Assembly: GCA_965212025.1 (NCBI GenBank)
Contig: OZ243039.1
Span: 1,135,705-1,199,704 of the forward strand
Source of the DNA: Candidatus Oxydemutatoraceae bacterium
GTDB taxonomy: Bacteria > Pseudomonadota > Gammaproteobacteria > Poriferisulfidales > Oxydemutatoraceae
DNA length: 64,000 bases
Reading direction: 5' to 3'
The notes under the pieces are model-generated. The model saw nothing but the letters and a program-made list of their open reading frames with translations. It made no database searches and was not told the DNA's origin. The stretch's first letter is position 1; each line of letters opens with the position of its first letter. The position numbers and the translations under genes are program-made. Positions 3,351-39,758 of this stretch are shown here, in pieces.

Positions 3351-3454
3351 AGCAAATTACCTCTTGTTGATGACTAAAGATCAGAATGATTGTTGTATCC
3401 AAAGATAAAATGAGTTGAAGTCCTTATCGAACTCCTTACCGCTACCGGGTCGAG

Positions 3455-4839
3455 TTAGTCCGCTTGACCGGCAGGACCAAGGTCTCCGTGAGCAAAAACT
3501 CCGGCAACATAAAAGCCTGAGTCGTTCCAGTATTCGGCAAGCAAATTCACTTCGGTATCAAAGACATCACCGGCATCATATTCAGATCCAGGTGGACCAC
3601 CTGCGGCGTCCCGCTCGTGGTGGAATCCGAGCAACTGAACCCTGGACAACCAAGAGACTGGTGGGGAGACGGCTAGCTTGACCATTTGCGTTCTCTGATC
3701 CGAATTGTTATGCCACCACTCACCGGCGAACTCTCCCTGGAACCAAGTGCCCCAACTTCTGAGAAAGGTGTAAAACAATGCGTCATGTGCCTCATTACTG
3801 TCAGGGGTGTTTGGATCGTCTCCACTGGCACGAAAATATCGATACCCAACTTGCGGACTCCAAGGCAACCCCTGAATGTTGTGTTCTACTTCCGCATAGT
3901 AGGAGTAAGCGTCGCTGTAGCTCACCGTGCCATCTGGGCTGTCGCCAGCATCCAAAATGACTTCCCCGTAGAAAGTTGTATTTGGCAAAGCCGAGAATTT
4001 CAAACCTTCAAGGCGAAAGTCGTAATAACGCCTGCCTTGTCTAGTGGGGCTATCAGAAGCAGTAACAGCTATGTACATAAGCCCAAGCTTGCCTCCCGTC
4101 AGAAAGCCTAATCCTGCTTCTGGCACCGTGTACTCCAGGTTCACCCCCCATACTTGAGTGTTCAGCCCTTTGTAGATATCAGAGCCCCCTTCCAACCAGA
4201 AAATGTCAGCACGAACGTCTTCAACCCCAGGAACCTGATTAACGCGAACTATGGCTGATTCGCGAAAAGCCTTGTGTGCGCCGATGAAAAATTCGCCGGA
4301 GTCCCGACCACAAAAAGTATTACCACAGTCCAGAGAGCCATCACCGATCAGTAGTGCATCACCAACTACAAAGTCTTGCGCACCAAAGGAGACGTCCACC
4401 CAGTCATTGCGATAACCCAAATTCGCCCACTCGTTAATAAATTTGTGGTCGCCATCCTCAACGTAGCCGTATGGGGCGGGATCATTGCCAAAAGTCCACG
4501 ACGCTGCCGAGACGTAGGATATCCTGCTGTAAATGGTGCCGCCGGCGTCCAGATCGTAAGTCAAATCAATTTGCGGCTCTAAGGCCACCTCGCCCTCGTT
4601 GGAGTCGTTGGTCGACTGGTATCGCTAGAAGAGCCACCACCGTTTGCGGTTATGGCAAAGCCAACCAGCAACGCGCTGACTTTCGCTTTGAAGTTTCCTG
4701 CGGAGTACAACTCATATTCAGAGTAGGCGGCGGGGGAGAAAGCCAAGGCAGTGAAAGCTACGGATAGCGTAGCCCACACCTGTGAGGCTCGTAAAAAGCT
4801 ACCCTTACGGCCAGCTCTAAAAGCAGAAATTTCTAACAT
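3455..4839 (-). pseudogene. Outer-membrane beta-barrel (alginate-export/AlgE-like porin) gene interrupted by a frameshift near 4600-4625
   Basis: The N-terminal ORF 4579..4839 encodes a signal peptide (MLEISAFRAGRKGSFL...ALAFSPAAYS) plus the first strands. The body ORF 3455..4588 lies in another frame, is rich in aromatic and alternating residues, and ends in a terminal F (AlgE-like). The two frames overlap and an in-frame TAG sits at 4625-4627. Confidence 0.6.
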
Positions 4840-15551: not shown

Positions 15552-16846
15552 ATGGCAAGAATAGAAGGATTAAAGATTCAAAATTATCGAGTACTGAAAG
15601 ACGTGACGCTTGGAAAACTGTGCAATACGTAAAAAGCCGACCCACTGACGCCCATGACGGTGGTTATCGGGAAAAACGGTGCTGGGAAGAGCGCACTGCT
15701 CGATGCTTTCGGTTTTTTGGCTGATTGTTTGAAACCAGGTGTCGCGGATGCGTGTAACCATAGAGGGCGGGGAGGACTTACCGTGTCCGTTCTCAAGGAA
15801 GTAGCGACCCCATTGTGTTTGAGATCTATTATCGGCAGGGGAAGAAGGATCGCCCAATCACTTATGAAGTTGGAATCAATGAGGATTCGGATGGTCGCCC
15901 CTACGTAGCAAAAGAGCGGCTCCGCCAGCGGCGAAAAGGACAAAAACGAGGGCAACCCTTCTCCTTTTTCAGGTTGGTGAAAGGTACGGGATTCGTGTGG
16001 ACAGGGGAGATGCAGGCAACTGAGCGTGATGATAGCGTGGCGGATTCAGAGTGAAAAAATTATTGTCTTAAATCTCCTCCAGACATAGCAAGTGAAGAAC
16101 AGGAAAGTGGCAAAAAAGAGTTTGTTGAGCTATACAACAGACAAAGACTAGGTATCGCGACCTTTGGTTCTTTGAAGCAGCATCCCCGAATATCTGTGCT
16201 TCGGGAGTTTATTGAAAGCTGGTATTTGAGTTATTTCACGCCAGATGCTGCCCGCGATTCGCCTTTGGCCGGGTCGCAAAGGCATTTGAATACCCATGGT
16301 GACAACCTTGGCAATGTTGTGCAGTTCATGGAAGGTGAACACCCCGAAGAATTCAGTCGTGTACTGGAGAGAATTGCTGCCAAAATCCCGGGGATTGAAA
16401 AAATAGACACAATCGTGAGCATAGACCAGCGGGTGTTGCTCCGTTTCAAGGAGAAGGGCTTTTCTGATCATTTTTACGCCCAGCAAATGTCCGACGGCAC
16501 GCTGAAAGTCTTTGCCTATTTGTTGTTGCTGGAAGACCAGAAGCCGCCGCCATTCATTTGCATAGAAGAGCCAGAAAATGGTCTTTACCACAAGCTTTTG
16601 GATGTTTTGGCAATAGAATTTCGCAAATATACTGTCCACAATAATAATAACGTGCAGCTGTTCATCACCACTCATCAGCCATATTTTGTAAATGCGCTAA
16701 GCCCGGACGAGGTTTGGGTTCTCAAGAAAGGCTCAAATGGTTTTTCGGAGATTTCCAGAGCAAGTGGCAACAACGAGATTGTCGCTTTGGTAGGAGAGGA
16801 GTTCCCGCTTGGAGAACTTTGGCATGGCGAATATTTGGAGGATTAG
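15552..16846 (+). pseudogene. OLD/AAA_21-like ABC-type ATPase, disrupted by at least 2 frameshifts and 1 in-frame TGA
   Basis: Three fragments are visible. 'MARIEGLKIQNYRVLKDVTLGKL' (15552-) resembles the N-terminal strand. The next fragment carries a Walker A P-loop 'VVIGKNGAGKSALLDAFGFL'. The last fragment carries a Walker B/D-loop 'PPFICIEEPENGLYHKLL' and H-loop 'LFITTHQPYF'. The pieces sit in different frames, and the frame of 15815..16054 continues into 16172..16846 across a single TGA at 16052-54. The region has lower GC than its flanks. Confidence 0.75.
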
Positions 16847-17523
16847 TCTCGGTACGGGAAGTGTGTCAATGCATATTCGGGTACATATCGGAGATAAATC
16901 GGGGAAGATCTTGCTGAATTCTGTTATGGGGAAAATTATTCAAGGGTCGACAGGCCACTCTTACAAAGTCCATTGCCATCCTGGTGAAGGTCACATTCCG
17001 AAAAAGGAAACCAAAAGCCCAAAACCGAACAAGCAGGGTTTGCTGAATAGACTGCCTAATATTGTTGAGAGGGTTGGGTAAATGCCCAAAAGAAGCTAAT
17101 GCTGTAGTCGTGGTCATGGATTTGGACGATCGTAACTGCCGGGAATTGAAGAAAAAATTATGCGACATCCTGGAGAGCTGCAAACCAGCACCCAGAACAA
17201 AATTCAGGTTTGCGATAGAGGAAACGGAGGCTTGGTTACTGGGAGACCCTAAGGCCATAGAAGCGGCCTGCCCGAAGTGGGACGCTTCAGCCTTGGCTGG
17301 TTATACCCCAAGACAGCATTTGTGGTACGTGGGAAAAGCTGGCGGCATTCATCCAAATGGGTCGAAAGAATTGAAAAAAAAGGGATACCCCTTTGTTGGG
17401 CAATATAAATGCGAGTGGGCGGAAAAAATTGCTCCTTATATGGATGTGGAAAATAATCAATCGAAAAGTTTCCAGGTTTTTCGTGACACTGTCAGAGAAC
17501 TGATAACTCCCAAAACTGTTTGA
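16824..17523 (+). pseudogene. Small partner protein of the ATPase (DUF4276/RloB-like, putative Toprim-like nuclease component), frameshifted near 17060-17080
   Basis: The ATG at 16824 overlaps the ATPase stop, suggesting translational coupling. The C-terminal half has 'AVVVVMDLDDRNCRE...FAIEETEAWLLGDPKAIEAA', which resembles the conserved E-x-E-A-W-L tail of DUF4276 proteins that partner with AAA_21/OLD ATPases. The reading frame switches at about 17062-17081. Confidence 0.5.
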
Positions 17524-17646
17524 TGGGGGGCACCTGACGGTTCAAAGTCCTGCTTGTGGGGTGGGTGGTGCTTTTGGACATTCATGTCTCCTTCATGCTC
17601 CGGCGCTTAGAGACTAAGCCCCTGCTGCGGCCGGCTCGGATCGCTC

Positions 17647-18369
17647 TCATGACGTTTTTCGTAGTTGCGCCTCGCCGTTTGTGACGCTGAGAACCTGACC
17701 GCCTTGCTCCCAGTCGCCAAGGACGAAGCGTCGGGCTTGGTATCTGCCCAGGTTGAATTCGTGTACGGCAGGGCGGTGCGTGTGACCGTGTATCAGCTGA
17801 TCCACCCTAAATCGCTGCATGTAGAACTCAACCGTTTTCTGGTTGACATCCATAATGTGGCTTTCCAGGTTTCTTTTTTTCCTGGCCTCGCTTTTACTTC
17901 GCAAGTAGGTGGAAATTTTTTTTCTGCGAGCCAGTGGCAGGGACTTGAAAATCCATTTCGAAAGGGGATTTTGCACCCACAGGCGGAAAACCTGGTACGC
18001 AGTGTCATCGGTGCAAAACACGTCTCCGTGCGTGATCAAGGTGCGTCTGCCGCCCAGTCTGACCACCGATAGCTGAGATAGCAGCTTACAGCCGCTTCTA
18101 CGCGCAAATTTGCGCCCAATGAGAAAATCACGGTTGCCATGGATAAAATAAATGGGCAGCTCCTTGCGTAGCTTCCGTAAGGCGGCAACGACAACCTCAA
18201 GTTCCGGTGCCATGGCGTCGTCCCCGATCCAGCTGTCAAAAAGATCGCCGAGGATATAAAGAGCCTTGGCTCCGGGAACCTCTTCTGCCAGATAGAGAAG
18301 AAAACGATCTGTGGTTTTCGGTCGTGCCGGGCTGAGATGGCAATCGGAAACGAATTCAATTCGACTCAT
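17647..18369 (-). CDS. lpxH: UDP-2,3-diacylglucosamine diphosphatase
   Basis: Calcineurin-like metallophosphoesterase motifs 'FVSDCHL', 'YILGDLFDSWIGDD', 'FIHGNRDFL' and 'LITHGDVFCTDD'. The ppiB-lpxH arrangement matches E. coli. Confidence 0.9.
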   Translation of the reverse strand: MSRIEFVSDCHLSPARPKTTDRFLLYLAEEVPGAKALYILGDLFDSWIGDDAMAPELEVVVAALRKLRKELPIYFIHGNRDFLIGRKFARRSGCKLLSQLSVVRLGGRRTLITHGDVFCTDDTAYQVFRLWVQNPLSKWIFKSLPLARRKKISTYLRSKSEARKKRNLESHIMDVNQKTVEFYMQRFRVDQLIHGHTHRPAVHEFNLGRYQARRFVLGDWEQGGQVLSVTNGEAQLRKTS

Positions 18370-18435
18370 GAAAATTTATTTCGCCGTCGCGAATTCCGCA
18401 TGGCAGAGACAGACCAGCTGTCGGCGACAACAGGG

Positions 18436-19077
18436 CTACTGTTTGAGCAACTCTGCCTTTTCAATCGTCACGGGCTGTTTTGGTACGTCGCTATGCCCCT
18501 TGGCCCTTCCTGTGGGTACGCCGGCAATTTTATCGACGACATCCATGCCTTGAGCAACCTTCCCGAAAACCGCGTATCCCCATCCTTGTTGGTTTTTGCC
18601 CGTGAAATCCAGAGAACTGTTATCAGACAGGTTAATGAAAAATTGCGAGCTGGCCGAATGGGGATCTCCGGAGCGCGCCATGGCCAGGGTGCCGCGCCGG
18701 TTCTTCAAGTCGTTATGGGCTTCATTCTGAATGGTTTTTGCAGTGGGCTTTTGTTGCATCTGAGCGGTAAATCCCCCGCCTTGGATAACAAAGCCAGAAA
18801 TGACGCGGTGAAAAATCGTGTGGTCATAAAAACCGTTTTTTACGTAAGCCAGGAAGTTTGCTACAGTTTCCGGTGCCTTTTCCTGAAAAAGCTCAATTTC
18901 CACGTTCCCCATGCTGGTTTTTAACAATACTTTCGGGTTATTGCTGACCAATGTTTTTGGCTCATCGCCTGGATTGCCTTTAGCTTGACCGCCTCCGTTT
19001 TCGGAACAGGCCGTCACCATTGCAAACCCAATCAAGGCCATTCCCAAAGTGGCAACGTTACTGTGGTGTTTTTCCAT
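18436..19077 (-). CDS. ppiB: Peptidyl-prolyl cis-trans isomerase, cyclophilin type (lipoprotein/periplasmic)
   Basis: Cyclophilin core 'FHRVISGFVIQGGGF...GTLAMARSGDPHSASSQFFINL' with an N-terminal signal ending in 'VTACS' (lipobox-like). Confidence 0.88.
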   Translation of the reverse strand: MEKHHSNVATLGMALIGFAMVTACSENGGGQAKGNPGDEPKTLVSNNPKVLLKTSMGNVEIELFQEKAPETVANFLAYVKNGFYDHTIFHRVISGFVIQGGGFTAQMQQKPTAKTIQNEAHNDLKNRRGTLAMARSGDPHSASSQFFINLSDNSSLDFTGKNQQGWGYAVFGKVAQGMDVVDKIAGVPTGRAKGHSDVPKQPVTIEKAELLKQ

Positions 19078-19264
19078 GCTAAAGCTCCTGAAATGCTAAA
19101 GTTTTCAATGTTACCAGAGGATGGATCTGAATCTCTTGTGTACATCGCTTCTGGCAAAGGTGCACGGTACGGCGACATTGGTAAATTTTCAGCACGGTAC
19201 GTGAGTCTTGGGAGTACCATGACCCTTTTGCATAAGGTTTTTTAGAAGAAATGTCCGGAAACAA

Positions 19265-19744
19265 ATGCGTCGCCGCGTAAAGCGGCAGCCGGGATTGATC
19301 GCCGGTAATCCTCGGGCACGCCACGACTATCATATTGAGAAGACTTATGAGGCAGGGATCAGTCTGTTGGGTTGGGAAGTCAAAAGCCTGCGTTCTGGCC
19401 GCCTCTCATTGAAGGGCAGCTTTGTGCAAATGAGAAATCAGGAAGCGTTCTTGATTGCGTCACATATTTCGCCATTGGACACTTGTCCGGCGTACATGGA
19501 AGCTAATGCCACGAGAGCACGGAAGCTGTTGCTGAACAAGATTGAATTGCGCCGTATGTATGCCGCCTTGGAACAACAGGGCTACTCCCTGATTCCAGTT
19601 CGTGCCTATTGGCGCAAAAACCGTGCGAAGCTGGAGATTGGCCTGGGAAAGGGCAAAAAGCTCTACGACAAGCGGGCGGTTTCACGCGAGCGCGACTGGG
19701 CAAGAGAAAAGGATCGAATACTTAAGAAAGACATCAAGCTCTAA
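19265..19744 (+). CDS. smpB: SsrA-binding protein
   Basis: 'ARHDYHIEKTYEAGISLLGWEVKSLRSGRLSLKGSFV...LLLNKIELRRMY' is the canonical SmpB sequence. Confidence 0.92.
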   Translation: MRRRVKRQPGLIAGNPRARHDYHIEKTYEAGISLLGWEVKSLRSGRLSLKGSFVQMRNQEAFLIASHISPLDTCPAYMEANATRARKLLLNKIELRRMYAALEQQGYSLIPVRAYWRKNRAKLEIGLGKGKKLYDKRAVSRERDWAREKDRILKKDIKL

Positions 19745-19846
19745 AGTCCCCGCTTCCGCAGGCTTTCTGTGGTGACTGCTAAAATTGTGGCAATCGGACT
19801 GATTGGGCTTGAGGTCAAAACCGATGCCCGCAGAAATGTCAGGAGA

Positions 19847-20488
19847 CTATTTTTTCCGACTCAGCCGTATTGACTGTGTGCCCAGATGATCCTGAAGTAA
19901 CCTGAGCATATCGGCTTCCGCGCTTCCGGAGCTTCCCTGCTTTTTCCAGCCTCCGCCGACCCTGACTTCTTGCACATAGCTTAGAGAAGTCATGGTGCCG
20001 CCTTTTTGATTGCTGCGAAGCTGTTGCACAAACCGGTCGCGCTGGGTTGCCTGGCGTGAACCGTCAGGTGATTTCTTCTCCCGCCAGCGGGTCAGGAGAT
20101 AGCCTCGTTCTTTGCTCTGTTTTTCCACTTGGTAGCCATAGCGCTTCCAGAAACCCTGTACCCTCGACCAGACCACCGACTGCGGCGAGTCGGTTTCCAG
20201 CCATGTTTTGGAGCCGGTTTTTCGCAGGTGGGCAGTGGCCGAAGCAACACGGACGACGCGGGTTTTTTTGCGCAGTGCCTGGTGATCGGTCAACATGAAG
20301 TGATCTGAGCCTTTCGGCTTGTCCAGACCGGGTGGCATTTCCAGTTCGTGGTTTTCTTCCACCATATAAGCTTCCGCCTTAAAAAAGGGAGATTGCAATT
20401 CATCGAAAAAGCTTTCTTTACCTGAACAGCCGGCCAGCACTGCGCAAAGAAACAAGATAGGTCTGAGAGTCATATTTTTAGTTCGCAA
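19847..20488 (-). CDS. bamC: Outer-membrane protein assembly factor BamC-like lipoprotein
   Basis: Lipoprotein signal 'LFLCAVLAGCSG' and a position immediately downstream of dapA on the same strand, matching the conserved dapA-bamC operon. Shorter than E. coli BamC, so the homology call is moderate. Confidence 0.55.
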   Translation of the reverse strand: MRTKNMTLRPILFLCAVLAGCSGKESFFDELQSPFFKAEAYMVEENHELEMPPGLDKPKGSDHFMLTDHQALRKKTRVVRVASATAHLRKTGSKTWLETDSPQSVVWSRVQGFWKRYGYQVEKQSKERGYLLTRWREKKSPDGSRQATQRDRFVQQLRSNQKGGTMTSLSYVQEVRVGGGWKKQGSSGSAEADMLRLLQDHLGTQSIRLSRKK

Positions 20489-20498
20489 AGTGTTTCCT

Positions 20499-21401
20499 CT
20501 ATGGGGCGAGGATGCCGGCGGCTTTGGCCACGCTGCGCAAAGTACCGTGATGTGTCTGGGAAAGCCATGTCAGTGGCAAACGGATGCCTGGCGGTATTTT
20601 ACCCATTTCACACAGCAGCCACTTTACGGGAATCGGGTTGGATTCGCAAAACAAAGCTTTGTGCAAAGCTTGCAAGCGCTGATCAATGCGCTCGGTGCCG
20701 GCGTGATCCTTTGCCAGAGCAGAACGGCACATATCACTGACCAGGCGGGGAGCAACATTGGCGGTCACGGAGATCACGCCATGACCACCACGCAAAATCG
20801 TGTCTGCGGCCATGAAATCTTCACCGCTGAAAATTATAAAATCTTCACCGCAAAGACGGGAAATTTCCTGGGTTCTTTGTGGATCGCCGGAGGCTTCCTT
20901 GATGCCGACTATGTTGTCGATTTCGCTCAAACGGCAAATGGTTTCAGGAAGCATGTCACACGCCGTGCGCGAAGGGACGTTGTACAGAATCTGCGGAATG
21001 TCCACTGCTTCGGCAATGCTTCGATAGTGCTGGTACAGCCCTTCCTGAGTCGGCTTGTTGTAATACGGAGTGATCAGCAGACAGGCGTCGGCGTTTTCGT
21101 GCGCGGCATTCCGGCTCAATCTGATCGCCTCGGCGGTGGCATTGGTTCCGGTTCCGGCAATGACCGGTACGCGACCGTTGACGGCCTGAACGGTTTCGCT
21201 GACCACCCGGCAATGCTCCTGAAAGTTCAGCGTGGCCGCTTCGCCGGTTGTTCCGCCGGGGACAATGGCGTTAGTGCCTTCCTGGACGTGAAAATCAACC
21301 AAGCGGTGCAAGGCGGGCAGAGCCAGTTCGCCACTGGATTGCATCGGAGTGACCATTGCCACCACGCTTCCTTTGAATCGCTGTAGATTTGTGCTCGTCA
21401 T
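20499..21401 (-). CDS. dapA: 4-hydroxy-tetrahydrodipicolinate synthase
   Basis: 'GSVVAMVTPM...AIVPGGTTGEAATL...IAGTGTNATAEAI...YNVPSRT' is the DapA/NAL family sequence. The ATG at 21401 (MTSTNLQRFKG) is preferred. Confidence 0.9.
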   Translation of the reverse strand: MTSTNLQRFKGSVVAMVTPMQSSGELALPALHRLVDFHVQEGTNAIVPGGTTGEAATLNFQEHCRVVSETVQAVNGRVPVIAGTGTNATAEAIRLSRNAAHENADACLLITPYYNKPTQEGLYQHYRSIAEAVDIPQILYNVPSRTACDMLPETICRLSEIDNIVGIKEASGDPQRTQEISRLCGEDFIIFSGEDFMAADTILRGGHGVISVTANVAPRLVSDMCRSALAKDHAGTERIDQRLQALHKALFCESNPIPVKWLLCEMGKIPPGIRLPLTWLSQTHHGTLRSVAKAAGILAP

Positions 21402-23459: not shown

Positions 23460-26400
23460 ATGATGGTGCGTTTGAAATGCTTTGTCTGGGGGGCACAGAG
23501 ACTGATCAGAAACAGATATTGCTTATTGGCTCTGCTGCTGCTGTTGCTGGCGCCTGGCGTGTTTTCGCAAAGCATGCCTGGCAGGGAAGTTGAGTTGCCG
23601 CAGGTGCAATCGAGTCCTGAAATTCGCCATGCCTGGAAAGCAGCGGTTGAAAATTATCCCTTGCAGGCAACGCAGCTTGATCTTTCCGTGCTGAGTGACA
23701 AAGAACAGGAAGAAATCCAAAGTTTGCTCAGTGACCCGATAAAGACCTACGTGGGGATTGGCAGAAACGTACACCTGACTGAAGCAAATTGGGCAATGGT
23801 CAAGCGGCAAGACGGGTTTGCAATATGGCAGGCACAGATCCATTCTCCGGCGGCCTTGTCTTTGAAGGTGCGTTTCAGCGATTTTGATCTTGGGTTGGGG
23901 ATGTCCGTCAAAGTGTACGGTCTCAGTGGTGGCATCGGTGCCCCGGTTGAAGAATATGCGGGTCGTGGATTGGGAGACGATGGGGAGTTTTGGTCATTGG
24001 CGGTTCCTGGAGACTCGGTGGCCGTGGAGTACTGGCTTCCTGCCGAGCTTGAGATGCGCCCTGCTGATTTTCCCTTCAAGGTGGAAAGAATCAGCCATCG
24101 CTTCAGGGAAGAAGGCAAGCTGTCCGGAGTGAATGTGAGGCTCCTTGTCCCCCGACAATCCACTTGTGGATCTCCAGTGCCTGTCTGTTCCGCAAAGAAT
24201 GAAGTGGCGCGGGGTGTTGCTCGCTATTACGTCATTAGGGATGACGGGAAAGAAAGACAGTGTTCTGGCACCTTACTGAACAATGGAAGCGGGTCAGGGA
24301 ACCGTGCGCTTTATTTTCTCACAGCTTTTCATTGCATCGATGGGGTGGTGCGTTCTTCCGAAGTTCCCAAAGACACATTCATCAATACGGAGTTCCGGTT
24401 TCGTTACGATAATTGCACTGATAAATCTGAATACATTGAGGGTAGAGGCGCGACATTTGTTGCCGGAAGTGTGATCACGGTGGGGGATTGGGCGCTGTTG
24501 CGCATTGATGGGGAACTGACCGGTGGCAGCGGGGGTGGCTACACCCTTCTGGGTTGGGATTCTGCAAATCTTTCAAGATTTGCAGGCTACACGATTCATC
24601 ACGGAAGTGGCCTACCGCAAAGGCGCTCTTCATTTGACAGCATCGGTCTTGATTATGTGGCAAGAGTTGTGACGAATGGCAATGGCGGTCGTTCAACAGT
24701 TTTTTTGCCGTGCTCGGGTGCAGGCTGCTCGCATTTCGACTTGCGATTTAATCAAAGTATTTCTGGCGGTGCGTCAGGTGCTTCCATCTTGGTTGATGGT
24801 GACAAGCCGCAAGTGGTGGGCGTGCTTACGAATACTAATGAGACCTGCGGAGGGAATGCTTCCAGGTTCAGCAAGATGTACGAGGATGGGCGGGTTCAGG
24901 GAGCACTCACTTACGGTGACGATTATTTTCGGGACAGGGGAGAGGCGAGAAGCTTTGATGACTCGGCTCGGCCTGACTACAACCCCGTCCCGCCTGCGAT
25001 TGAAGGTGATGCCGAGATTGTGATCGGTGTGGTACATGGCAGTAATGGCTTGCCACTGACTTTGCGTGCCGAGGCGTTTGATGTCCGTTCCTTGCGCTGG
25101 GGTCTGCTGGAGGATTCAGGCCCGAGCGTGGCGGGAAGTGGGGTGCGTTTTCTGGAGGACAAAGGGGCGCGGGCACGTCTTGTCTACGAGGTTCCCGGGG
25201 GGATTAAAGAGCAAGATCAGTTTTCTGTGCAGGTGAGCAGTGCGGGGGGCAGCGATATGGTGACTGTACGCGTGCGACTTATTGGTGGGCCATTGCCGTT
25301 GCCGCCAGAGTGCGAGGGAAAGGGGTTGGCGACGGTTCCGGGGAATGGGACACTTGGCAATCCCTATCAACTGAGCACGCTTTGCCAACTGCAGGACATC
25401 AATTCGCAGCTCGACTCTCACTATCGCCTGACTGCCGATATTGATGCTTCTTCCAGCCGGGACTGGAATGGTGGAAGCGGGTTTCATCCTGTCGCCAAGG
25501 GTGTAGGAATCTTCCAGATTTTTGAACTGCTTGATGGTGAGTTGGCGTTAAGGAGTACTTACGAAAGGACTCTGTCGCAATATGTTTTTAGAGGTTCCTT
25601 CGATGGCGGCGGTTTTTCCATTGATGGACTGGTGGTGAACCGGGAAGAGGAAGAACTCGTGGGTCTGTTTTCCATCACGGATGGTGCCACCTTCAGGAAT
25701 GTGCGGCTTTTGAACTCGGAAATAAAAGGGCGCGACGGAGTTGGCACCTTGGCAGGACTCATGATTCGCAGCACGGTTTCTGGGTTCCATTTCAGGGGCG
25801 GTGTCGATGGGATCTCGGATGTAGGAAGCCTTTCGGGGATCAGTTTTTCCGGGAGCTTTGAAAACGGCTCGGTAACCGGTTCGGTACAGGGGGCTGAAGA
25901 TTTTGTCGGTGGTCTTGCAGGGGGGCATTTTGGGGGGACTGTGTCCGATGTTTCAGCGTACGGGTTGACCGTCTCGGGAAGAAACTATGTTGGCGGGCTC
26001 GTCGGCCATGATAGAAACAGCACCATCAGCGACAGCAATGCGCATACAGAGGTTTCCGGAGACGATTTTGTCGGGGGCTTGACTGGGTGGAGCCAAGGAG
26101 GAACGCTTGGTAAATGCTTCGTAACCGGCACGGCCAACGGCTTCAGCGTTGTTGGCGGACTCGCAGGATGGGTTCGTGGAAGTGACATCATCGACAGTTA
26201 CGCGACAGCTTCTGCCTCGGGAACTGACAACGTGGGCGGATTGGTAGGCTGGAGCAGCAATGGAGGGGCTATCAGCAACAGTTATGCGACCGGAGCTGCT
26301 ACCGGCACCACTTGGGTAGGCAGCCTGGTTGGTGATAATCAGGGCGAAGTCAGGAACAGCTATGCCTCGGGTGTGGTTACGCCGGTAGGGAATGGTCAAT

Positions 26401-28142
26401 ACGTGGGAGGTCTCCTGGGAGATAACAGCGGTGGGTCTTCGTCTGACAGCTTCATGCGTACGTTGGCGCAATTGCAGTGCCCGTTAAGGCCTGGTCAGTC
26501 TTGTCGGGGTGCTCGCTCGTATGTCGGTTGGAGTGAGCGGGAGTGGGACTTTGGTGATGCGAACAAGCTGCCAACCATCCGCTCGCAGCCGGCTCCGGTG
26601 ATTGCGGAGGGTGACGAGAAAGTGCTCGTAGCGGCTTATGGTAGTAGTAGCGTGACGCTGGCCTTGCATGCCGAGTCTGTCAACCCCGATTCTTTGAGAT
26701 GGCAGTTGTTGTCTGGTTCAGGTTCGGGTGTGCCGGGAAGCAGCGTGCGTTTCCTGAAAGACCAAGGAGCAGAGGCGCGTATTGTTTATGAGGTGCAGGG
26801 AGGGATTCGGAAGGAAGACCAATTTTCTGTACAGGTGAGAGGTACAGGTGGCACAGATGTGATTACTGTACTCGTAGGTGTTGCGCCTGCGATTGTAGGG
26901 GATGACGAAAAAGCGCTCAGCGTGGCTTATGGTAGTGGTGAAGGGGAACTGACCATGCGTGCCGGGGCGGTCAATCCTGATTCTCTGAGGTGGCGGTTGG
27001 TGTCCGGCTCAGGTTCGAGTGTGCCGGAAAGTCGTGTACGTTTTCTGAGAAATCAGGGAGTTGAGGCGCGTGTCGTTTATGAGGTTCCTGGCGGGATTCG
27101 GCAGGAAGACCAGTTTTCCATACAGGTGACGGGTACAGGTGGCACAGATGTAGTTGTTGTGCGCGTGGTCGTTGTGCCTACTATTGTGGAGGGTGACGAG
27201 GAAACGCTCGTGGTGGCTTATGGTAGTGGTGGTGGGGAGTTGGTCTTGCATGCCGAGGCGGTCAATCCCGACTCTCTGAGCTGGCAGTTGGTGTCCGGTT
27301 CAGGGCCTCAGGAAGGTAATGTACGCTTTACGGATCAAACGGGAGCTGAAGCACGTGTTGTTTATGAGGTGCGAGGTGGGATTCGTCAGAGAGATAAATT
27401 CTCTGTGCAGGTGCGTGATTCGGGTGGCAGCGATGAAATTACGATTTTTGTGATGCCGGACAGGCCGCCGGTGATCAACCGAGTTTTCGGTAGGGAGGTT
27501 GACGATGATGATGATGAGTTGATTGTCTACATCAGTCCCCAAACTCTAGAAGTGGTTCTGGATGTGATTGCTTCAGACGAGTCTCCTGAAAATCTGGAGT
27601 GGACAGTTACAGGTGATGCTGGAGCTTCGCTTGACATCTTTCCTCGTTCTCGGGTGGGAGGAGAAGTTGAGGTGTCATACCGACGAAGTTCTGCGGAAAT
27701 CAAAAGCGGTAGTTTTGTCACCACAGTGACAGACAGATTTGGACAATCAGACTCGTTTGTGGTGCGTATAGCCGAGAATGCGGATGCTCCGGAGGTCGTC
27801 AATGATGGTGTGACAATCACTAAGACGGGTAAAACGCTGGAAGTGAAAATACCTTACAGCAGCGAGCAACTAGTACTGGATTTGGTTACCCGTTTGGCAC
27901 GGGCGGGGCTTGTGGGGGAACAAGTCAGAAGTACCCCGACCGATGCGCAGGCGTCGTTCTCTTCGGCTGACGGTGAAGGGGCACTGAAGGTTCTGTTACC
28001 GGTTCCACTAGGTGTGGATGAAGCCTCGTTCTTGATACGGGTCAGAAACGGGGCTGCCAGCGAGAAAATTACGATACATGTCACGCGTGAGCAAGTTATC
28101 CGGCTGCGCCTGAAAGCGTACCTCGGTGGAGCGACTCGATAG
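23460..28142 (+). CDS. Secreted multidomain trypsin-like serine protease (lysyl-endopeptidase-like S1 domain + Ig-like repeats + GLUG repeats)
   Basis: Signal peptide 'LIRNRYCLLALLLLLLAPGVFSQ|S'. The S1 catalytic triad has His in 'LTAFHCIDG', Asp in 'GDWALLRIDG' and Ser in 'ISGGASGASI' (compare the lysyl endopeptidase GGSSGSP motif). An 'NGTLGNPYQLSTLCQLQDINSQLDSHYRLTADIDAS' segment precedes multiple 'VGGLVG...NSYATG' GLUG-type repeats. Four ~99-aa Ig-like repeats are present ('...VAYGSG..L.L.AEAVNPDSLRW.L.SGSG....VRF....GAEARVVYEV.GGIR.EDQFSVQV'). The C-terminus ends '...RLRLKAYLGGATR'. Confidence 0.8.
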   Translation: MMVRLKCFVWGAQRLIRNRYCLLALLLLLLAPGVFSQSMPGREVELPQVQSSPEIRHAWKAAVENYPLQATQLDLSVLSDKEQEEIQSLLSDPIKTYVGIGRNVHLTEANWAMVKRQDGFAIWQAQIHSPAALSLKVRFSDFDLGLGMSVKVYGLSGGIGAPVEEYAGRGLGDDGEFWSLAVPGDSVAVEYWLPAELEMRPADFPFKVERISHRFREEGKLSGVNVRLLVPRQSTCGSPVPVCSAKNEVARGVARYYVIRDDGKERQCSGTLLNNGSGSGNRALYFLTAFHCIDGVVRSSEVPKDTFINTEFRFRYDNCTDKSEYIEGRGATFVAGSVITVGDWALLRIDGELTGGSGGGYTLLGWDSANLSRFAGYTIHHGSGLPQRRSSFDSIGLDYVARVVTNGNGGRSTVFLPCSGAGCSHFDLRFNQSISGGASGASILVDGDKPQVVGVLTNTNETCGGNASRFSKMYEDGRVQGALTYGDDYFRDRGEARSFDDSARPDYNPVPPAIEGDAEIVIGVVHGSNGLPLTLRAEAFDVRSLRWGLLEDSGPSVAGSGVRFLEDKGARARLVYEVPGGIKEQDQFSVQVSSAGGSDMVTVRVRLIGGPLPLPPECEGKGLATVPGNGTLGNPYQLSTLCQLQDINSQLDSHYRLTADIDASSSRDWNGGSGFHPVAKGVGIFQIFELLDGELALRSTYERTLSQYVFRGSFDGGGFSIDGLVVNREEEELVGLFSITDGATFRNVRLLNSEIKGRDGVGTLAGLMIRSTVSGFHFRGGVDGISDVGSLSGISFSGSFENGSVTGSVQGAEDFVGGLAGGHFGGTVSDVSAYGLTVSGRNYVGGLVGHDRNSTISDSNAHTEVSGDDFVGGLTGWSQGGTLGKCFVTGTANGFSVVGGLAGWVRGSDIIDSYATASASGTDNVGGLVGWSSNGGAISNSYATGAATGTTWVGSLVGDNQGEVRNSYASGVVTPVGNGQYVGGLLGDNSGGSSSDSFMRTLAQLQCPLRPGQSCRGARSYVGWSEREWDFGDANKLPTIRSQPAPVIAEGDEKVLVAAYGSSSVTLALHAESVNPDSLRWQLLSGSGSGVPGSSVRFLKDQGAEARIVYEVQGGIRKEDQFSVQVRGTGGTDVITVLVGVAPAIVGDDEKALSVAYGSGEGELTMRAGAVNPDSLRWRLVSGSGSSVPESRVRFLRNQGVEARVVYEVPGGIRQEDQFSIQVTGTGGTDVVVVRVVVVPTIVEGDEETLVVAYGSGGGELVLHAEAVNPDSLSWQLVSGSGPQEGNVRFTDQTGAEARVVYEVRGGIRQRDKFSVQVRDSGGSDEITIFVMPDRPPVINRVFGREVDDDDDELIVYISPQTLEVVLDVIASDESPENLEWTVTGDAGASLDIFPRSRVGGEVEVSYRRSSAEIKSGSFVTTVTDRFGQSDSFVVRIAENADAPEVVNDGVTITKTGKTLEVKIPYSSEQLVLDLVTRLARAGLVGEQVRSTPTDAQASFSSADGEGALKVLLPVPLGVDEASFLIRVRNGAASEKITIHVTREQVIRLRLKAYLGGATR
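26590..27470 (+). repeat. Three consecutive ~297-bp intragenic tandem repeats encoding Ig-like modules (a fourth, more diverged copy at ~24990-25290)
   Basis: Protein-level repeats start 'PAPVIAEGDEKVLVAAYGSS', 'PAIVGDDEKALSVAYGSG' and 'PTIVEGDEETLVVAYGSG'. The underlying nucleotide units share long identical stretches, such as 'ggcttatggtagtggtg', 'gtcaatcccgactctctgag' and 'gtttatgaggt'. Confidence 0.8.
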
Positions 28143-28520
28143 GAGTGAACCACGTCTGTTTTGGCAAGCAGTTTCTTGGGTTCTGTTTTGAGTGAAGCTC
28201 CGTTTGTTCAGGATGAGGGTTAGCAACGGGTCTGCCAGCGAGAAAATTACGATACATGTCACGCGTGAGCAGGTTATCCGGCTGCGCCTGAAGGCGCACC
28301 TCGGTGGAGCGGCTCGATAGGAGTGAATCACGCCCGTTTCGGCAAGCTACTCCTTGGATTCTGTTTTGAGTGAAGCTCCGTTTGTTCAGGATGAGGGTTA
28401 GCAACGGGTCTGCCAGCGAGCAAATGACGACATTATGTGAGTGGGGTTATGCGCGAGCAGGTTATATCCGGTCGTGCCTGAAAGCACACCTCGGTGGTGC
28501 GATTCGATAGGAGTGAATCA
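28044..28520 (+). repeat. Three tandem ~180-bp copies of the protease 3'-tail cassette (copy 1 is the true gene end; copies 2 and 3 are degenerate)
   Basis: Copy 1 at 28044-28141 encodes '...NGAASEKITIHVTREQVIRLRLKAYLGGATR*'. Copy 2 at 28222-28319 encodes 'NGSASEKITIHVTREQVIRLRLKAHLGGAAR*'. Copy 3 at 28402-28508 carries indels and encodes '...CLKAHLGGAIR*'. The spacers between copies ('gagtgaa[ct]cacg...gttcaggatgagggttagc') are themselves homologous to upstream coding sequence. Confidence 0.85.
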
Positions 28521-28840
28521 CGCTCATCTCGGTAGCCGATTCCTTATTTTTTTGCTTCGCTACCCTTTGGCACCAATATGATCAGACCGTGTCTTTGGCA
28601 ATGTCGTAGCCAGGTCGCAACGCTGGGCAGATGCGAAATCGTGCGCAGCAGTTTCCGGCGGCTCTACTACTGCGTAGCTCGTGTGGTGCACCCGATTTTG
28701 GGTAGCGGTGACGGAAGTTACTCTGGCGTGTTGTACCACCTATCGGGAAACGGTAGTTTTCCGAACGTGCAAGGCGAAAGCCGTTTTGCGCCACGTGGCA
28801 TCAGAGTTGGCAAGTCTGGCTTCGTGAAGGTGCGTTTGAA

Positions 28841-30385
28841 GTGCTTTGCCTGAGGGTAGAGAAACTGATCAGAAACAGATATTGCTTATTGGCGCTGCTA
28901 CTGCTGGCACCTGGTGTGTTTTCGCAAAGTGTGCCGAGCATGGAAGTTGAACTGCGGCCTGCGCGAACGAGTTCTGAAATTCGCCATGCCCGGAAAGCAG
29001 CGGTTGAAAATTATCCCTTGCGGGCAACGCAGCTTGATCTTTCCGTGCTGAGCGACAAAGAACAGGAAGAAATCCAAAGTTTGCTCAGTGATCCGATAAA
29101 GACCTACGTGGGGATTGGCAGAGACGTCTACTTGACTGAAGCAAATTGGGCAATGGTCAAGCGGGAAGACGGGTTTTCAATATGGCAGGCACAGATCTAT
29201 TCTCCGGCGGCTTTGTCGTTGAATGTGCGTTTCAGCGATTTTGATCTTGGGTTGGGGATGTCCGTTAAAGTGTACGGTCTTGGCGGCGGCGTCGGTGCCC
29301 CGGTTGGGGAATATACGGATCGTGGATTGGGGGACGGTGGAAAGTTATGGTCGCTGTCAGTTCATGGAGACACGGTGGTTGTGGAATACTGGCTTCCTGC
29401 CGAGTTCGAAACGCGCCCCGCTGATTTTCCCTTCAGGGTAGAAAGACTCAGTCATGGCTTCAGGGACGAAGAAGGCAGGCTATCTGGAGTGAATGTAAGG
29501 AGCTTTGTCCCCCGTCAATCCACTTGCGGGTCACCACTTCCTGTCTGTGCTGCAGATGATGAAAATGCGCAGGGCGTCGCTCTCTATTTTGTTACTGACC
29601 ATGACGGGAGGCGAGGCCAGTGCTCTGGTGTCTTACTGAACAATGGAAACGAACCAAGGAACCGTACGCTTTATTTTCTCACCGCTTTTCATTGCATTGA
29701 TGGGGTGGTGAGGTCTTCCGAAGCTCCCAAAGGAACACGCATCAATACGGAGTTTCGGTTTCACTACGATACCGCATTATGCGGTTCTGATGGTTATATC
29801 AGTGGTGGAAACTCACGATTTATTGCTGGAAGCATTAGGGGAGATTGGGCACTGCTGCGTATTGACGGAGACCTGACCAATTTGAGTAGGAAGCAACTTT
29901 ATTACAGGCACCAAGGCTGGAGTGCCAGGCATCTTGGAGTTTTTTTTGGCTACATACTTCACCACCCAGTTCGTATGTCGCTAGGATTCTCCTCTTTTCT
30001 CAGCATTGGTCTTAGTCATGTGGTCGGAACCGGAACGAATAGCTACTTTGAGCCGTGTACGCATGCTGGCTGCTCGCATTTCAAATATTCTCTAGACCGA
30101 GCTACTTCAGGCGGCTCTTCAGGTGCTCCTATTTTTTATCCTGTTGGAGACTACGTTGTGGGGGTGCATACGCATGGTATTAGCAGCAGCTGCGTCGGGT
30201 GGGGAGCCCGATTCAGCAAGATGTACGAGGATGGAAGAGTTAAGGGAGCACTCACATACGGTGACGATTATTATTTTGACAGGGGAGCGGCGATGAATTT
30301 TGCTGACTCAGATCAACCTGGCTACAACCTCCGCGGGCAAGTTCCGGTGCGTTTGAAAGTGTACCTCGGTGGCGCGGTTCGATAG
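28841..30385 (+). CDS. Secreted trypsin-like serine protease, short paralog of 23460..28142
   Basis: The signal peptide and leader are nearly identical ('LIRNRYCLLALLLLAPGVFSQS'), as are the N-domain and S1 domain ('LTAFHCIDGVVRSSE', 'DWALLRIDGDL', 'TSGGSSGAPI'). The protein ends 'VPVRLKVYLGGAVR', homologous to the long paralog's tail. It starts at GTG 28841. The upstream 'VKVRLKCFA*' is the out-of-frame remnant of the paralog's ATG start. Confidence 0.75.
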   Translation: MLCLRVEKLIRNRYCLLALLLLAPGVFSQSVPSMEVELRPARTSSEIRHARKAAVENYPLRATQLDLSVLSDKEQEEIQSLLSDPIKTYVGIGRDVYLTEANWAMVKREDGFSIWQAQIYSPAALSLNVRFSDFDLGLGMSVKVYGLGGGVGAPVGEYTDRGLGDGGKLWSLSVHGDTVVVEYWLPAEFETRPADFPFRVERLSHGFRDEEGRLSGVNVRSFVPRQSTCGSPLPVCAADDENAQGVALYFVTDHDGRRGQCSGVLLNNGNEPRNRTLYFLTAFHCIDGVVRSSEAPKGTRINTEFRFHYDTALCGSDGYISGGNSRFIAGSIRGDWALLRIDGDLTNLSRKQLYYRHQGWSARHLGVFFGYILHHPVRMSLGFSSFLSIGLSHVVGTGTNSYFEPCTHAGCSHFKYSLDRATSGGSSGAPIFYPVGDYVVGVHTHGISSSCVGWGARFSKMYEDGRVKGALTYGDDYYFDRGAAMNFADSDQPGYNLRGQVPVRLKVYLGGAVR

Positions 30386-30619
30386 GAGCGCGCTGCGCCT
30401 TTTTCGGTAGACGATTCCTTGTTTTTCTGCTTCGGTGCCCTTGGCGCAGTACAATCAGACCGTGTCTTTGGCAATGTCGTAGCCAGGTCGCAATGCTCTC
30501 GGACAGGTGCCAGAAATCGCGTGCTGTGCGTTGCTTGCCAGAGAAAATGCGAACATAATCACTTTCCGCATAACGCTTTAGTCGTGTGTGGTTCATCATG
30601 TCAGAAGCGGGGGCTTGGG

Positions 30620-37649: not shown

Positions 37650-37826
37650 CCTTTCACGGTTGATTTGTCTGGCATGGTGGATATCTACAGTGGTACTTTT
37701 TGGTTCCTGTCACATACGCCTGAGCAGTGGCAATTGTCTGTTATGCGTCTTTTTATCCGTTCCAGGATGGTGTCTGTGATAGAATGATTGGAAAGTGGCA
37801 AGGTACTTAAATTTCAGAGGTACGGA

Positions 37827-39758
37827 ATGAATATTTACTCGGTGGAAGAAATACAAAACGTGAAGGACAGGTTTGACGTTTGTGCAGAAGTAGCCCGGAA
37901 GCTGAACAGAGATAGTGTTAGTGGCGAAAAGAAGTGGGGACGTATTGTTTTAGGGGCTGATGGATATCCAGAGGTTCACGTAGCCAAGAGTGCCAAGGGC
38001 AAGGTTTGGCACTTCTTGAAGGTGACAGTGCTCAGGCCTTATATGTATTACCAGAATTACAAGTTGCTGAAGAATCTTGAGTCTTCAGTCCGCGAGTGCT
38101 TTGGAGAAGACCATAGGGAGAATGCCGCCAAGGAGATCCGTGAAATTGCAGCAATGGCATCAGTCGCTTCAAAGAGCAGGAAGCCTTATATGGGTTCTTA
38201 CCAGAATTTCGCAGACTATGTTGCCGAATTTGCAGCCGCAGGAGGTCGTAAATTTCAAGCGATGGAGACAGAGGGTTCCTCTCCGATGGAAGTGAATGAT
38301 TTCACCGATAGGCGAGACCATGCTCCCCCGACGGAAGTGAATGACTCCACCGAGAGGAGAGCCCCTGCTCCCCCGACGGAAGTGAATGATTCCTCCATGA
38401 GTGGAGATAATAAACTCCGTGTTCCGTTAGAACTGGAACGGGCTGATGGTGAGGGAAATTTTGGTTCCAAGGAACAAGGCTTGATGGCTGGCTTGTCCAT
38501 GTTTGGTCAGAATCGGAACGACCAAAAGTCTAGGGAAGACATGCTGTCAGAGAGGAACGCGTTTTTACCGGGTGAGTCGTCTGAATTGTCAGAAGCGAAA
38601 CCGTTAATGAGAAGTAAAGGCAATCTGGGTAGGAGAAAATCTTTCTCAGGGTGGGGGTATCCGAAACAAGATGGCCAATCCAAGAATAGGCCTACTTCAA
38701 GAGTAGAAATAAAGTCGTTTTCGGAACGTCCTGGTTTGGTTGGGTTTGGTGCCAGCCCGATGAAGCGACGTTTAACGCGCACACCTGACGGAGGGGATTC
38801 TGTGTTTTCTGTTGATCTTGAACTGTCTGTAGATGAGCCGGAAAGACAGGGTACAGGCCACAAACCCTTCAACCCAGCATTGAAGAGACCCGGCAGCGCT
38901 GGCTATTTAAGAAGCAAATCCACATTTACGCCCACACTGCCCCGTCGGAGTGTACCACCCAGCCCGTCATTGAAGAGAGCCAGCAGCACTGGCCATTTAA
39001 GAGGCAGATCCACACTTATGTCCACACCCACACCGAGCCGACGAGCCGGGGCGGGTAGTACCGGTGATCTTTCCCGGACACTTAGGGTTGACGGTGGAAC
39101 AGTGTTTTTGCACGTTGGTAATCAACCAGCTGATAGCTTGTTAGGAGATGAAGATTTCGAAGGTAGAGCAAAAGGGTACCACACCGAGCGTGAAGGAAGG
39201 ATACGTACCAAAATACACAAATTTTCGCATTCATCAGTGTTTAGTGGAAAGTTGCATGGGAAAACGCTTGGCGCACTTTCCAAACGGCTCAATTTAGGAG
39301 TGAAAGCCGTGGTATTAAGATCTGTCAGTTTGTTAGATGATGGGAGGTTGGGATATGCCAATTATTGGGGTTTTATCAATTTTTTACAGCCTGGATACGG
39401 TCAAGGAGGGAAATCTGAACATGCCAAAGGTTCACGACTTGTCGGTATAAGGGTCAATTCGAGCGAGCTTCAATGCGAAGAGAGTGCGTTTTTCCCAGCA
39501 GCCTGGGAGGCCATGCTGGAATATGAAATTCTCCATAATCCAGTTGAGGGAGAAGCAACCAAACCAACATCAGATGTCAATACTGTGGTTACCCTTGCTT
39601 CAAAACTTTCGACCGGAAAGAGTAGTGGAAAAAAAATTATAACAAAAGGAGAAGATCTGGTAGATCCTCTTAAAATCATTTATGAAAAATATGTAACAGA
39701 TAATGAGGAAATCTTTGTTGAACAAGATGATAGGGAAGAAACTTTGACCCATCTATAA
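37827..39758 (+). CDS. Hypothetical protein (charged, no signal peptide/TM; S/P/R-rich low-complexity centre; possible secreted effector)
   Basis: Open frame from 37788 (TTG). The ATG at 37827 has a good SD (gaggtacgga ATG). Short imperfect repeats 'PMEVNDFTDRRD / APPTEVNDSTERRA / PAPPTEVNDSSMSG'. A central 'KRPGSAGYLRSKSTFTPTLPRRSVPPSPSLKRASSTGHLRGRSTLMSTPTPSRRAGAGSTG' segment looks like eukaryotic RxxS/T-P motifs. GC is markedly lower than the flanks. No recognisable domain. Confidence 0.6.
   Translation: MNIYSVEEIQNVKDRFDVCAEVARKLNRDSVSGEKKWGRIVLGADGYPEVHVAKSAKGKVWHFLKVTVLRPYMYYQNYKLLKNLESSVRECFGEDHRENAAKEIREIAAMASVASKSRKPYMGSYQNFADYVAEFAAAGGRKFQAMETEGSSPMEVNDFTDRRDHAPPTEVNDSTERRAPAPPTEVNDSSMSGDNKLRVPLELERADGEGNFGSKEQGLMAGLSMFGQNRNDQKSREDMLSERNAFLPGESSELSEAKPLMRSKGNLGRRKSFSGWGYPKQDGQSKNRPTSRVEIKSFSERPGLVGFGASPMKRRLTRTPDGGDSVFSVDLELSVDEPERQGTGHKPFNPALKRPGSAGYLRSKSTFTPTLPRRSVPPSPSLKRASSTGHLRGRSTLMSTPTPSRRAGAGSTGDLSRTLRVDGGTVFLHVGNQPADSLLGDEDFEGRAKGYHTEREGRIRTKIHKFSHSSVFSGKLHGKTLGALSKRLNLGVKAVVLRSVSLLDDGRLGYANYWGFINFLQPGYGQGGKSEHAKGSRLVGIRVNSSELQCEESAFFPAAWEAMLEYEILHNPVEGEATKPTSDVNTVVTLASKLSTGKSSGKKIITKGEDLVDPLKIIYEKYVTDNEEIFVEQDDREETLTHL
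38283..38400 (+). repeat. ~2.5 copies of a 42-bp imperfect tandem repeat inside the hypothetical gene
   Basis: '(gct)cccccgacggaagtgaatga[ct]tcc[at]ccgagaggaga' is seen twice fully and once partially, encoding the 'APPTEVNDST' peptide repeats. Confidence 0.7.

Follow-up and report, generated by a model that had tools for sequence, protein, structure and literature searches.

Tandem duplications of the minisatellite type, or variable number tandem repeats, are kept up by unequal crossing-over and gene conversion, and tandem gene families are known for their concerted evolution. In the silent-cassette systems of antigenic variation, such as Neisseria pilS, Borrelia vls or the msp2 pseudogenes of Anaplasma, cassettes store the diversity of variable regions. 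Diversity-generating retroelements and the R64 shufflon have the 3' end of a surface-protein gene as their target, with repeats nearby. The orphans of polymorphic toxin loci bring different toxin domains together with cognate immunity genes, and swapping them alters function. The orphan modules of the cdiA-CT/cdiI and rhs-CT type have been reviewed (PMC7662968; PMC4927057). The locus discussed here lies in a 64-kb stretch of contig OZ243039.1 from a Candidatus Oxydemutatoraceae bacterium; this whole stretch is called the window. In it, the end of a gene for a secreted protease, stop codon included, is present three times in tandem. With a probability of roughly 70%, we consider the repeat to be a copy-number-variable tandem duplication of the gene end, which unequal crossing-over and gene conversion have created and reshaped in a fast-rearranging array of protease paralogs. 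The mechanism is ordinary. The locus is a clear example of known genome dynamics, not a new system or a purpose-built switching device.

The unit of 178 base pairs (bp) occurs three times, head-to-tail and on the + strand, at 28029-28559 of the window (Table 1). A first-pass annotation had already described three tandem copies of the protease 3' end, and all methods used here bear it out. Tandem Repeats Finder reports 28039-28430 with a period of 178, 2.2 copies, 91% matches and a score of 658; a repeat search of the window aligns 28028-28205 with 28206-28383 at 89% identity; a profile built from the units yields three in-phase matches (28029-28201, 28207-28379 and 28385-28559). A core of 26 nucleotides (nt) around the stop codon is found four times in the window against 0.00 expected from 100 shuffles, the fourth time at the end of the neighbouring gene 2 (30363-30388). 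All units of the window are on the + strand. The unit is composed of 114 coding nt (37 codons and the stop) and 64 nt of 3' flank; the 3' untranslated region, formerly given as ~80 bp, is indeed part of it but shorter. In unit 1 the 5' part codes for the last two strands of the final immunoglobulin (Ig)-like domain of the protease, the rest for a short C-terminal peptide.

Pairwise, copies 1 and 2 are 89% identical, copies 2 and 3 80%, and copies 1 and 3 73%. When the three consecutive segments are aligned, copy 2 is co-linear with copy 1, and copy 3 displays insertions of 10 nt and 2 nt, which are the indels reported for it before. Also the tail of copy 2 is intact, as had been claimed: its frame is open and reads ...RVSNGSASEKITIHVTREQVIRLRLKAHLGGAAR up to the stop, and a 42-codon open reading frame (ORF) is seen in this region at 28192..28320. 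The 5' junction of unit 2 is marked by a 4-nt insertion, which is common to the orphans, i.e., the extra copies, of related contigs. The 3' flank of unit 3 is a variant form that leads into the intergenic 'D' region, and unit 3 would be the older orphan of the two. From the 'D' region, 51 nt (28574-28624) reappear 3' of gene 2 (30447-30497) with 92% identity. In related contigs the 'D' region makes up the 5' half of another kind of repeat, type B; the type-B profile matches at 28565-28660.

Table 1. Features of the protease locus in the window
Feature	Coordinates	Strand	Description
Gene 1	23460..28142	+	secreted protease of 1560 residues; stop TAG 28140-28142
Internal Ig-like repeats of gene 1	26592..27460	+	291-bp units; Tandem Repeats Finder 26600-27304, period 291
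Unit 1	28029..28206	+	gene-terminal copy; coding part of 37 codons and stop 28140-28142, 3' flank of 64 nt
Unit 2	28207..28384	+	orphan; open tail frame, stop 28318-28320
Unit 3	28385..28559	+	orphan; stop 28508-28510
'D' region	28560..28660	+	downstream of unit 3
Gene 2	28841..30385	+	short paralog of 514 residues
Unit 4, partial	30331..30434	+	3' half of tail, stop and flank; closes gene 2

Evidence for a variable array comes from related genomes. The comparison set comprises six contigs of one sponge metagenome assembly (ENA ERZ25071281), here called L001-L004, L008 and L009, in which the syntenic locus is present as a whole or in part. L001 (OZ244118.1) is a 3.0-Mb circular chromosome of Candidatus Porisulfidus with 67x coverage. 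One paper on the metagenome of a carnivorous sponge, which may or may not be the sample behind ERZ25071281, names Porisulfidus as one of the symbionts obtained (PMC12988363). The layout of the locus is an AI-2E transporter gene, then the paralogs, then the fhc/formyltransferase genes. The flanking genes of the related contigs are 90-93% identical to the window at the nucleotide level. Among themselves some are much closer: compared with L001, the flanks are 98.1% identical in L002 and 98.8% in L004. Nevertheless, the number of paralogs is 2 in L002, 3 (and one pseudogene) in L004 and 4 in L001; L009 has 2. The paralogs, with 66-69% amino acid identity, diverge much faster than the flanks.

According to the profile search, a tail unit stands after essentially every paralog in every contig, and in the same phase as in the window. 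The period is 178 bp in the window and about 172-190 bp elsewhere, and profile coordinates 1-174 recur in register. The number of units per gene ranges from 1 to at least 10. Counted with the gene-end unit, successive paralogs are followed by 6, 2, 3 and 1 units in L001 and by 7, 1, 2 and at least 4 in L003, where the contig ends within the array; in L008 at least 10 units follow one gene. Even behind the orthologous gene A, which is 96-97% identical, the orphan count differs among L001, L002, L003, L004 and L009. Two kinds of unit are distinguished: the full tail unit (type A), and type B, which agrees with it in the 3' half but has the 'D' region, the normal sequence after the last unit, as its 5' half. 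Duplication has also affected whole blocks of two or three units. The footprints of unequal crossing-over that had been suspected from the window alone are well supported by a common phase in seven contigs, a range from 1 to at least 10 copies and duplicated multi-unit blocks. L006 is another paralog, elsewhere in the same chromosome, with a single tail and no array. In L007, a Ca. Oxydemutatoraceae genome, the protease homolog has no tail detectable by profile search, and pattern scans of metagenomes for further examples gave no matches.

The units also bear signs of recombination with each other. The orphan L001_3978 is 95% identical to the gene end L002_9052, and the orphan L004_13224 is 95% identical to the gene end L001_17729 and 94% to the gene end L002_14159; units shift between gene-end and orphan positions from strain to strain. 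When gene A of L001 is compared with that of L002, 0-5 mismatches per 50 columns are counted, then 19 per 50 in the final stretch. The last ~100 nt of the L001 gene have their best match, 92%, in type-B orphans, and have been replaced by orphan-type sequence. The effect on the peptide is small: EQFPRVRLKVLLGGATR becomes EQFIPVVRLKVLLGGATR, i.e., FPRV is changed to FIPVV only. The orphan 5' junction, in the window as in other contigs, has the derived 4-nt insertion (GAAGCTCYGTTTGTTCA... versus GAAGCC..GTTCA... in genes). Since it is common to the window and the foreign orphans, the orphan type must be older than the split of these species. Still, copy 2 of the window shares 89% identity with copy 1, and no foreign unit exceeds 78% identity to it; copies 1 and 2 have 10 derived sites in common versus 7 and 7 private ones. 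Such similarity, despite the old junction, argues for concerted evolution.

What do these exchanges mean for the protein? It had been proposed that the cassettes serve to swap or extend the C-terminus of the protease. Moves between gene end and orphan, as documented by the 95% pairs and by the tail of gene A in L001, agree with the swapping part. The peptides exchanged are, however, nearly the same, the tail is conserved and the orphans are under relaxed constraint. Nor is an extension available: units of 178 nt do not divide into whole codons, and two stops in the frame of gene 1 (TAG GAG TGA) terminate it, which precludes read-through of the protein into the next unit. In short, substrates for recombination of the tail are present, yet the encoded tail is barely altered. 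Nothing points to a system selected to vary it.

The fate of the extra copies differs from that of the gene ends. Pairwise diversity of gene ends is 0.10, 0.135 and 0.175 at codon positions 1, 2 and 3, respectively, and 0.26 in the non-coding flank. The corresponding values for orphans are 0.19, 0.19 and 0.26, and 0.23 in the flank, so that at positions 1 and 2 orphan diversity is up to ~2x that of gene ends. The former pattern is the one left by protein-level selection; the orphans, judging from these values, have lost most of that constraint. Of 19 full orphans, 5 are broken.

A second case, at a housekeeping gene in the same genus, is instructive. The last 30 codons of smpB, its stop and ~100 nt downstream are likewise repeated, with a period of 201 bp. 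One copy of this gene end is present in the window (19652-19744), two are found in L009 (633-1117) and at least four in L002 (1-1358); a 38-bp minisatellite with 4.5-15.6 copies follows 3' of the repeat. A variable smpB tail is of no conceivable use. The smpB array therefore supports plain tolerance of stop-containing duplications, and it suggests that these genomes readily generate duplications of gene 3' ends. Other repeats were seen in passing. The contig L007 contains several CRISPR-like (clustered regularly interspaced short palindromic repeats) arrays at 16584-21200, with a 61-bp period and the repeat GAAACACCCCCACGCACGTGGGGAAGAC. In the window, a 45-bp tandem repeat (38283-38393; 2.5 copies, 87% matches) lies in or near the ORF 37788..39758.

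How could the array have arisen? At its origin, a segment spanning the 3' end of the protease gene, stop codon included, would have been duplicated. With the stop codon inside the duplication, normal protein is still made from the first copy, and the additional ones do no harm as pseudo-tails. Unequal crossing-over of the RecA type and gene conversion, between tails as well as between whole paralogs, would then add, delete and hybridise units; the paralogs of the array have a conserved head and a conserved tail in common for such pairing. For the window, the simplest history would start from an ancestral array of two units, the gene end and one orphan. A single misaligned crossover could have produced copy 2 as a hybrid, orphan-like at its 5' junction and gene-like in the rest, and would have made the older orphan copy 3. 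On comparison of the units, unit 2 is probably such a hybrid. This one-crossover history would account for the 'decay gradient' from copy 1 to copy 3. We infer both the recombination mechanism as such, i.e., unequal crossing-over and gene conversion, and the selective neutrality of the arrays.

With minisatellites and variable number tandem repeats the locus has in common the in-phase head-to-tail units, a copy number that varies between close strains, hybrids and duplicated blocks, and, as in concertedly evolving tandem families, the similarity within a genome exceeds that between genomes. By phase and period, by copy-number variation, by hybrids and concerted evolution and by the relaxed state of the extra copies, it belongs to the copy-number-variable tandem duplications. 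It is peculiar in that the unit straddles a stop codon, which creates a series of pseudo gene ends. It is neither an in-frame coding repeat nor a purely intergenic satellite, and it recurs after every paralog of the array.

Several points do not fit this explanation easily. Tandem repeats are usually lost fast in bacteria. The derived junction, however, is common to species with 90-93% flank identity, so the array type has either persisted for long or been renewed. An open tail frame is kept by 14 of the 19 full orphans, which is more than long neutral decay predicts; this intactness is explained by recent origin from gene ends or by gene conversion. Several orphans open with an in-frame ATG or GTG made by the junction. 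A test of copies 1 and 2 for mosaicism, as expected from a gene-conversion tract, was marginal (longest identical run 40 nt, P = 0.078). Finally, the window's own species is represented by one genome, exact-protein look-ups with gene 1 and with a neighbouring amidohydrolase having matched no record, and the variation in copy number is that of sister lineages.

A hotspot of the Chi type was considered and dismissed. All tail copies, as well as the 38-bp minisatellite linked to smpB, contain the heptamer TCGGTGG, which occurs 16 times in the window versus 8.0 expected; since 4 of the 16 are the tail copies themselves, this surplus does not convince us. The units lack the canonical GCTGGTGG. The 5' starts of the paralogs, i.e., their first codons ahead of the signal peptide (VRLKCFVWGAQRLI; VRLKCF...; window 23466-23510 and 28828-28870), resemble the 3' half of the tail (...VRLKVLLGGATR and stop; VRLKVLL...) at the DNA level. 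The likeness consists of one match of 17/18 nt, significant in 1 of 4 comparisons, with a profile E value of 1.1, and homology of the two is taken as unproven.

The most serious rival explanation holds that the arrays are a selected reservoir of cassettes or a contingency locus, kept, in the manner of silent cassettes, as blocks of homology for the expansion, contraction and reshuffling of the paralogs or for replacement of their tails. Such a role would suit the presence of arrays behind nearly every paralog in all seven contigs, the switching of units between gene-end and orphan positions with one recombinant gene tail, the 2, 3 or 4 paralogs among strains with 98% identical flanks and the divergence of the paralogs, which by far outruns that of the flanks. 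Yet the orphans hold no alternative information, the tail peptide being nearly invariant. They are under relaxed constraint and some are broken; a like array exists at smpB, where variation has no use; and heads and tails of the paralogs could recombine without any orphan array. Nor was a dedicated enzyme detected nearby: Pfam was run on 18 ORFs in the region from 11.8 to 37.6 kb, with smaller ORFs and the rest of the window outside the scan, and the neighbours of the paralogs proved to be of housekeeping families only, with no reverse transcriptase or recombinase. We regard a selected reservoir as unlikely. To the same modest extent one may entertain a more general version, according to which a lineage-specific process repeatedly makes and keeps duplications of ~160-200 bp across gene 3' ends, of the protease paralogs as of smpB, and thereby provides a contingency locus that works by recombination without any enzyme of its own. 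If this were true, standing blocks of homology would speed the gain, loss and reshuffling of host-facing secreted proteases.

Two known types of partial gene copies come to mind here. Like the orphans of contact-dependent inhibition and Rhs loci, the units are truncated 3' fragments that follow a large gene for a secreted protein in the same direction, and their homology permits replacement of its end. Unlike those, they comprise just the conserved tail, encode near-identical peptides and are not followed by a gene; the next unit or the intergenic region adjoins. Neither a divergent C-terminal domain nor an immunity gene accompanies them, and polymorphic-toxin orphan modules were accordingly rejected. 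With silent cassettes the units share the character of promoterless partial copies near an expressed gene, with gene conversion between them. The units, however, drift in a near-neutral manner, and the expressed tail is conserved family-wide. Silent-cassette antigenic variation was discarded too, as its variable segments alter the protein and the C-terminus is here nearly invariant.

Could the orphans encode small proteins of their own? Peptides of 35-42 residues (e.g., VKLRLFRMRVSNGSASEKITIHVTREQVIRLRLKAHLGGAAR) might compete for, or regulate, whatever recognises the C-terminal motif. Owing to the junction insertion, both lineages have an ATG or GTG in the frame of the tail (other contigs: ATGAAGCTC...; window: GTGAAGCTC... 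and ATGAGG), the insertions of copy 3 add up to 12 nt and restore the frame of ...LKAHLGGAIR, and gene callers predicted some of these ORFs, for instance one of 42 residues at 14791..14919 of L003. By inspection of the sequence, however, no Shine-Dalgarno-like element is found upstream at a usable distance. The junction-derived ORFs of 35-42 codons are uninterrupted in only 4-5 of the 11 insertion-type orphans inspected, and type-B orphans have the same 3' half behind an immediate TAG and lack a start codon. Codon positions 1 and 2 of orphans are equally diverse and close to the non-coding flank. We consider small proteins very improbable.

Equally poor are the prospects of an element that acts in cis and is useful in several copies, whether it terminates or stabilises RNA, gives rise to a small RNA or binds a protein. 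In its favour, conservation of the unit is highest in the 3' half around the stop, which even type B has retained, and the flank has weak hairpins with a T-rich run behind them. The pertinent searches were negative. The Rfam scan matched no family to the units, the scan for terminator and promoter consensus found no site inside them, and their folding, compared with shuffles on both strands, revealed no excess structure (z -1.1 to +0.8); a structured cis-regulatory RNA or intrinsic terminator was rejected on these grounds. In addition, third positions of gene ends are more variable than first and second ones and the flank is the most variable part, as is typical of selection at the level of the protein, not of the nucleotides.

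A falsely expanded repeat was considered as well, since short-read assembly can go wrong at repeats of such a length. With 11-27% divergence and indels between them, however, the copies are not duplicated reads, and six independent contigs, the circular chromosome at 67x included, share this architecture; an assembly artefact is highly unlikely. A diversity-generating retroelement, with the gene end as variable repeat and copy 2 as template repeat, would explain a near-identical copy just downstream of the 3' end of a gene for a surface or secreted protein, but is effectively refuted: copies 1 and 2 show 20 differences, mostly transitions (14), with adenine concerned in only 4 (copy 2) or 6 (copy 1); the scanned ORFs include no reverse transcriptase; the repeats extend over the stop codon into non-coding sequence; and the tail displays conservation, not hypervariability. 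The R64 shufflon resembles the locus in its repeats near the 3' end of a surface-protein gene; the repeats are here direct, not inverted, and there is neither adenine bias nor a reverse transcriptase or recombinase among the ORFs scanned. An invertible segment was ruled out for the same reasons, all units being on the + strand without a site-specific recombinase in those ORFs; only one inverted repeat was found in the window, a 22-nt pair with 73% complementarity.

This leaves the duplicated gene end, remodelled by recombination, as the favoured explanation, and the genes to which it belongs deserve a closer look. Gene 1 codes, in this order, for a lysyl-endopeptidase-like propeptide, a trypsin-fold domain, GLUG motifs, Ig-like (Big_9) repeats and the tail ...LKAYLGGATR; its C-terminus is ...EKITIHVTREQVIRLRLKAYLGGATR, then TAG. 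The N-terminal 520 residues match the lysyl endopeptidase of PDB entry 9omd (E 1e-4) and its propeptide (E 4e-3), and the residues of the His/Asp/Ser triad, His291, Asp343 and Ser439, are invariant in the family alignment. Pfam recognises Glug and Big_9 in gene 1 and, weakly, Trypsin_2 in gene 2; NCBIfam has no match for either gene. Each 291-bp Ig-like repeat shares homology at its end with the 5' portion of the tail unit, on the basis of one repeat family in the window and a weak profile match at 27425-27454. A sub-threshold Rfam match to a Na+ riboswitch in the protease coding region (24552-24587; 23.1 bits versus a gathering threshold of 40.5, E 0.21) is almost certainly due to chance.

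Gene 2 corresponds to the protease region of gene 1 (residues 1-508), with 80-91% nucleotide identity at a constant offset of ~5360 bp. Its protease region is fused straight to the tail (...VRLKVYLGGAVR, then stop), without the 3.1-kb GLUG/Ig middle of gene 1. The 3' flanks of copy 3 and gene 2 match as well; therefore the tandem duplication comprises the entire block, from the leader through protease and tail to the sequence downstream. Compared with gene 1, the start of gene 2 suffers from a 1-nt deletion and from stop codons in the gene-1 frame (VRLKCFA, then a stop), which places the true start at GTG 28841 or later. A structure model of gene 2 from a 12-row family alignment was poor, with a mean predicted local distance difference test score (pLDDT) of 47.5 and tail residues below 50, and is uninformative on the role of the tail. 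Short forms like gene 2 are also seen in L003 (8100-9731) and, as a pseudogene, in L004. The latter (2918-4361) is broken by an unrelated ORF of 121 codons (3411-3776) made of 33-bp repeats (SEKHDSYMSRL-like). Its 5' junction fuses a type-B unit with the next paralog's leader, in a stretch resembling the 3' half of the tail.

The middles of the paralogs vary: GLUG, alginate-lyase-like or cadherin-like. The alginate-lyase-like ones contain in-frame repeats of 294-303 bp in 5.4-6.6 copies with 83-94% identity (L001 6327-8027; L002 11508-13104; L003 11665-13627; L009 11634-13242). Gene 1 of the window, by comparison, has 2.4 copies of its Ig-like repeat.

In contrast to the middles, the tail hardly changes. 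A search of 5.8 billion protein clusters retrieved ~10 true relatives with 44-69% identity, all of which finish in ...SNGSASEEITIRVTREQ.I.VR.KVLLGGATR. Among these ~10 homologs from one search, the extreme C-terminus ...VRLK(V/A)(L/Y)LGGA(T/V)R (...VRLKVLLGGATR) is nearly invariant; the motif (window 28100-28142) is found in all family members and kept even in the minimal paralog. It contains no transmembrane segment and matches no sorting signal known to us. In view of its family-wide conservation, the tail is presumably a functional part of the protein.

The locus is a hypervariable one. It encodes secreted, lysyl-endopeptidase-like proteases with adhesin-like repeats, the number and content of which vary even where the flanks are 98% identical. 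A protease locus of this kind in a sponge symbiont is a candidate for host interaction. The pseudo-tails, in turn, are markers from which the recombination history of the locus can be rebuilt, and they show why duplications that contain a stop codon are tolerated.

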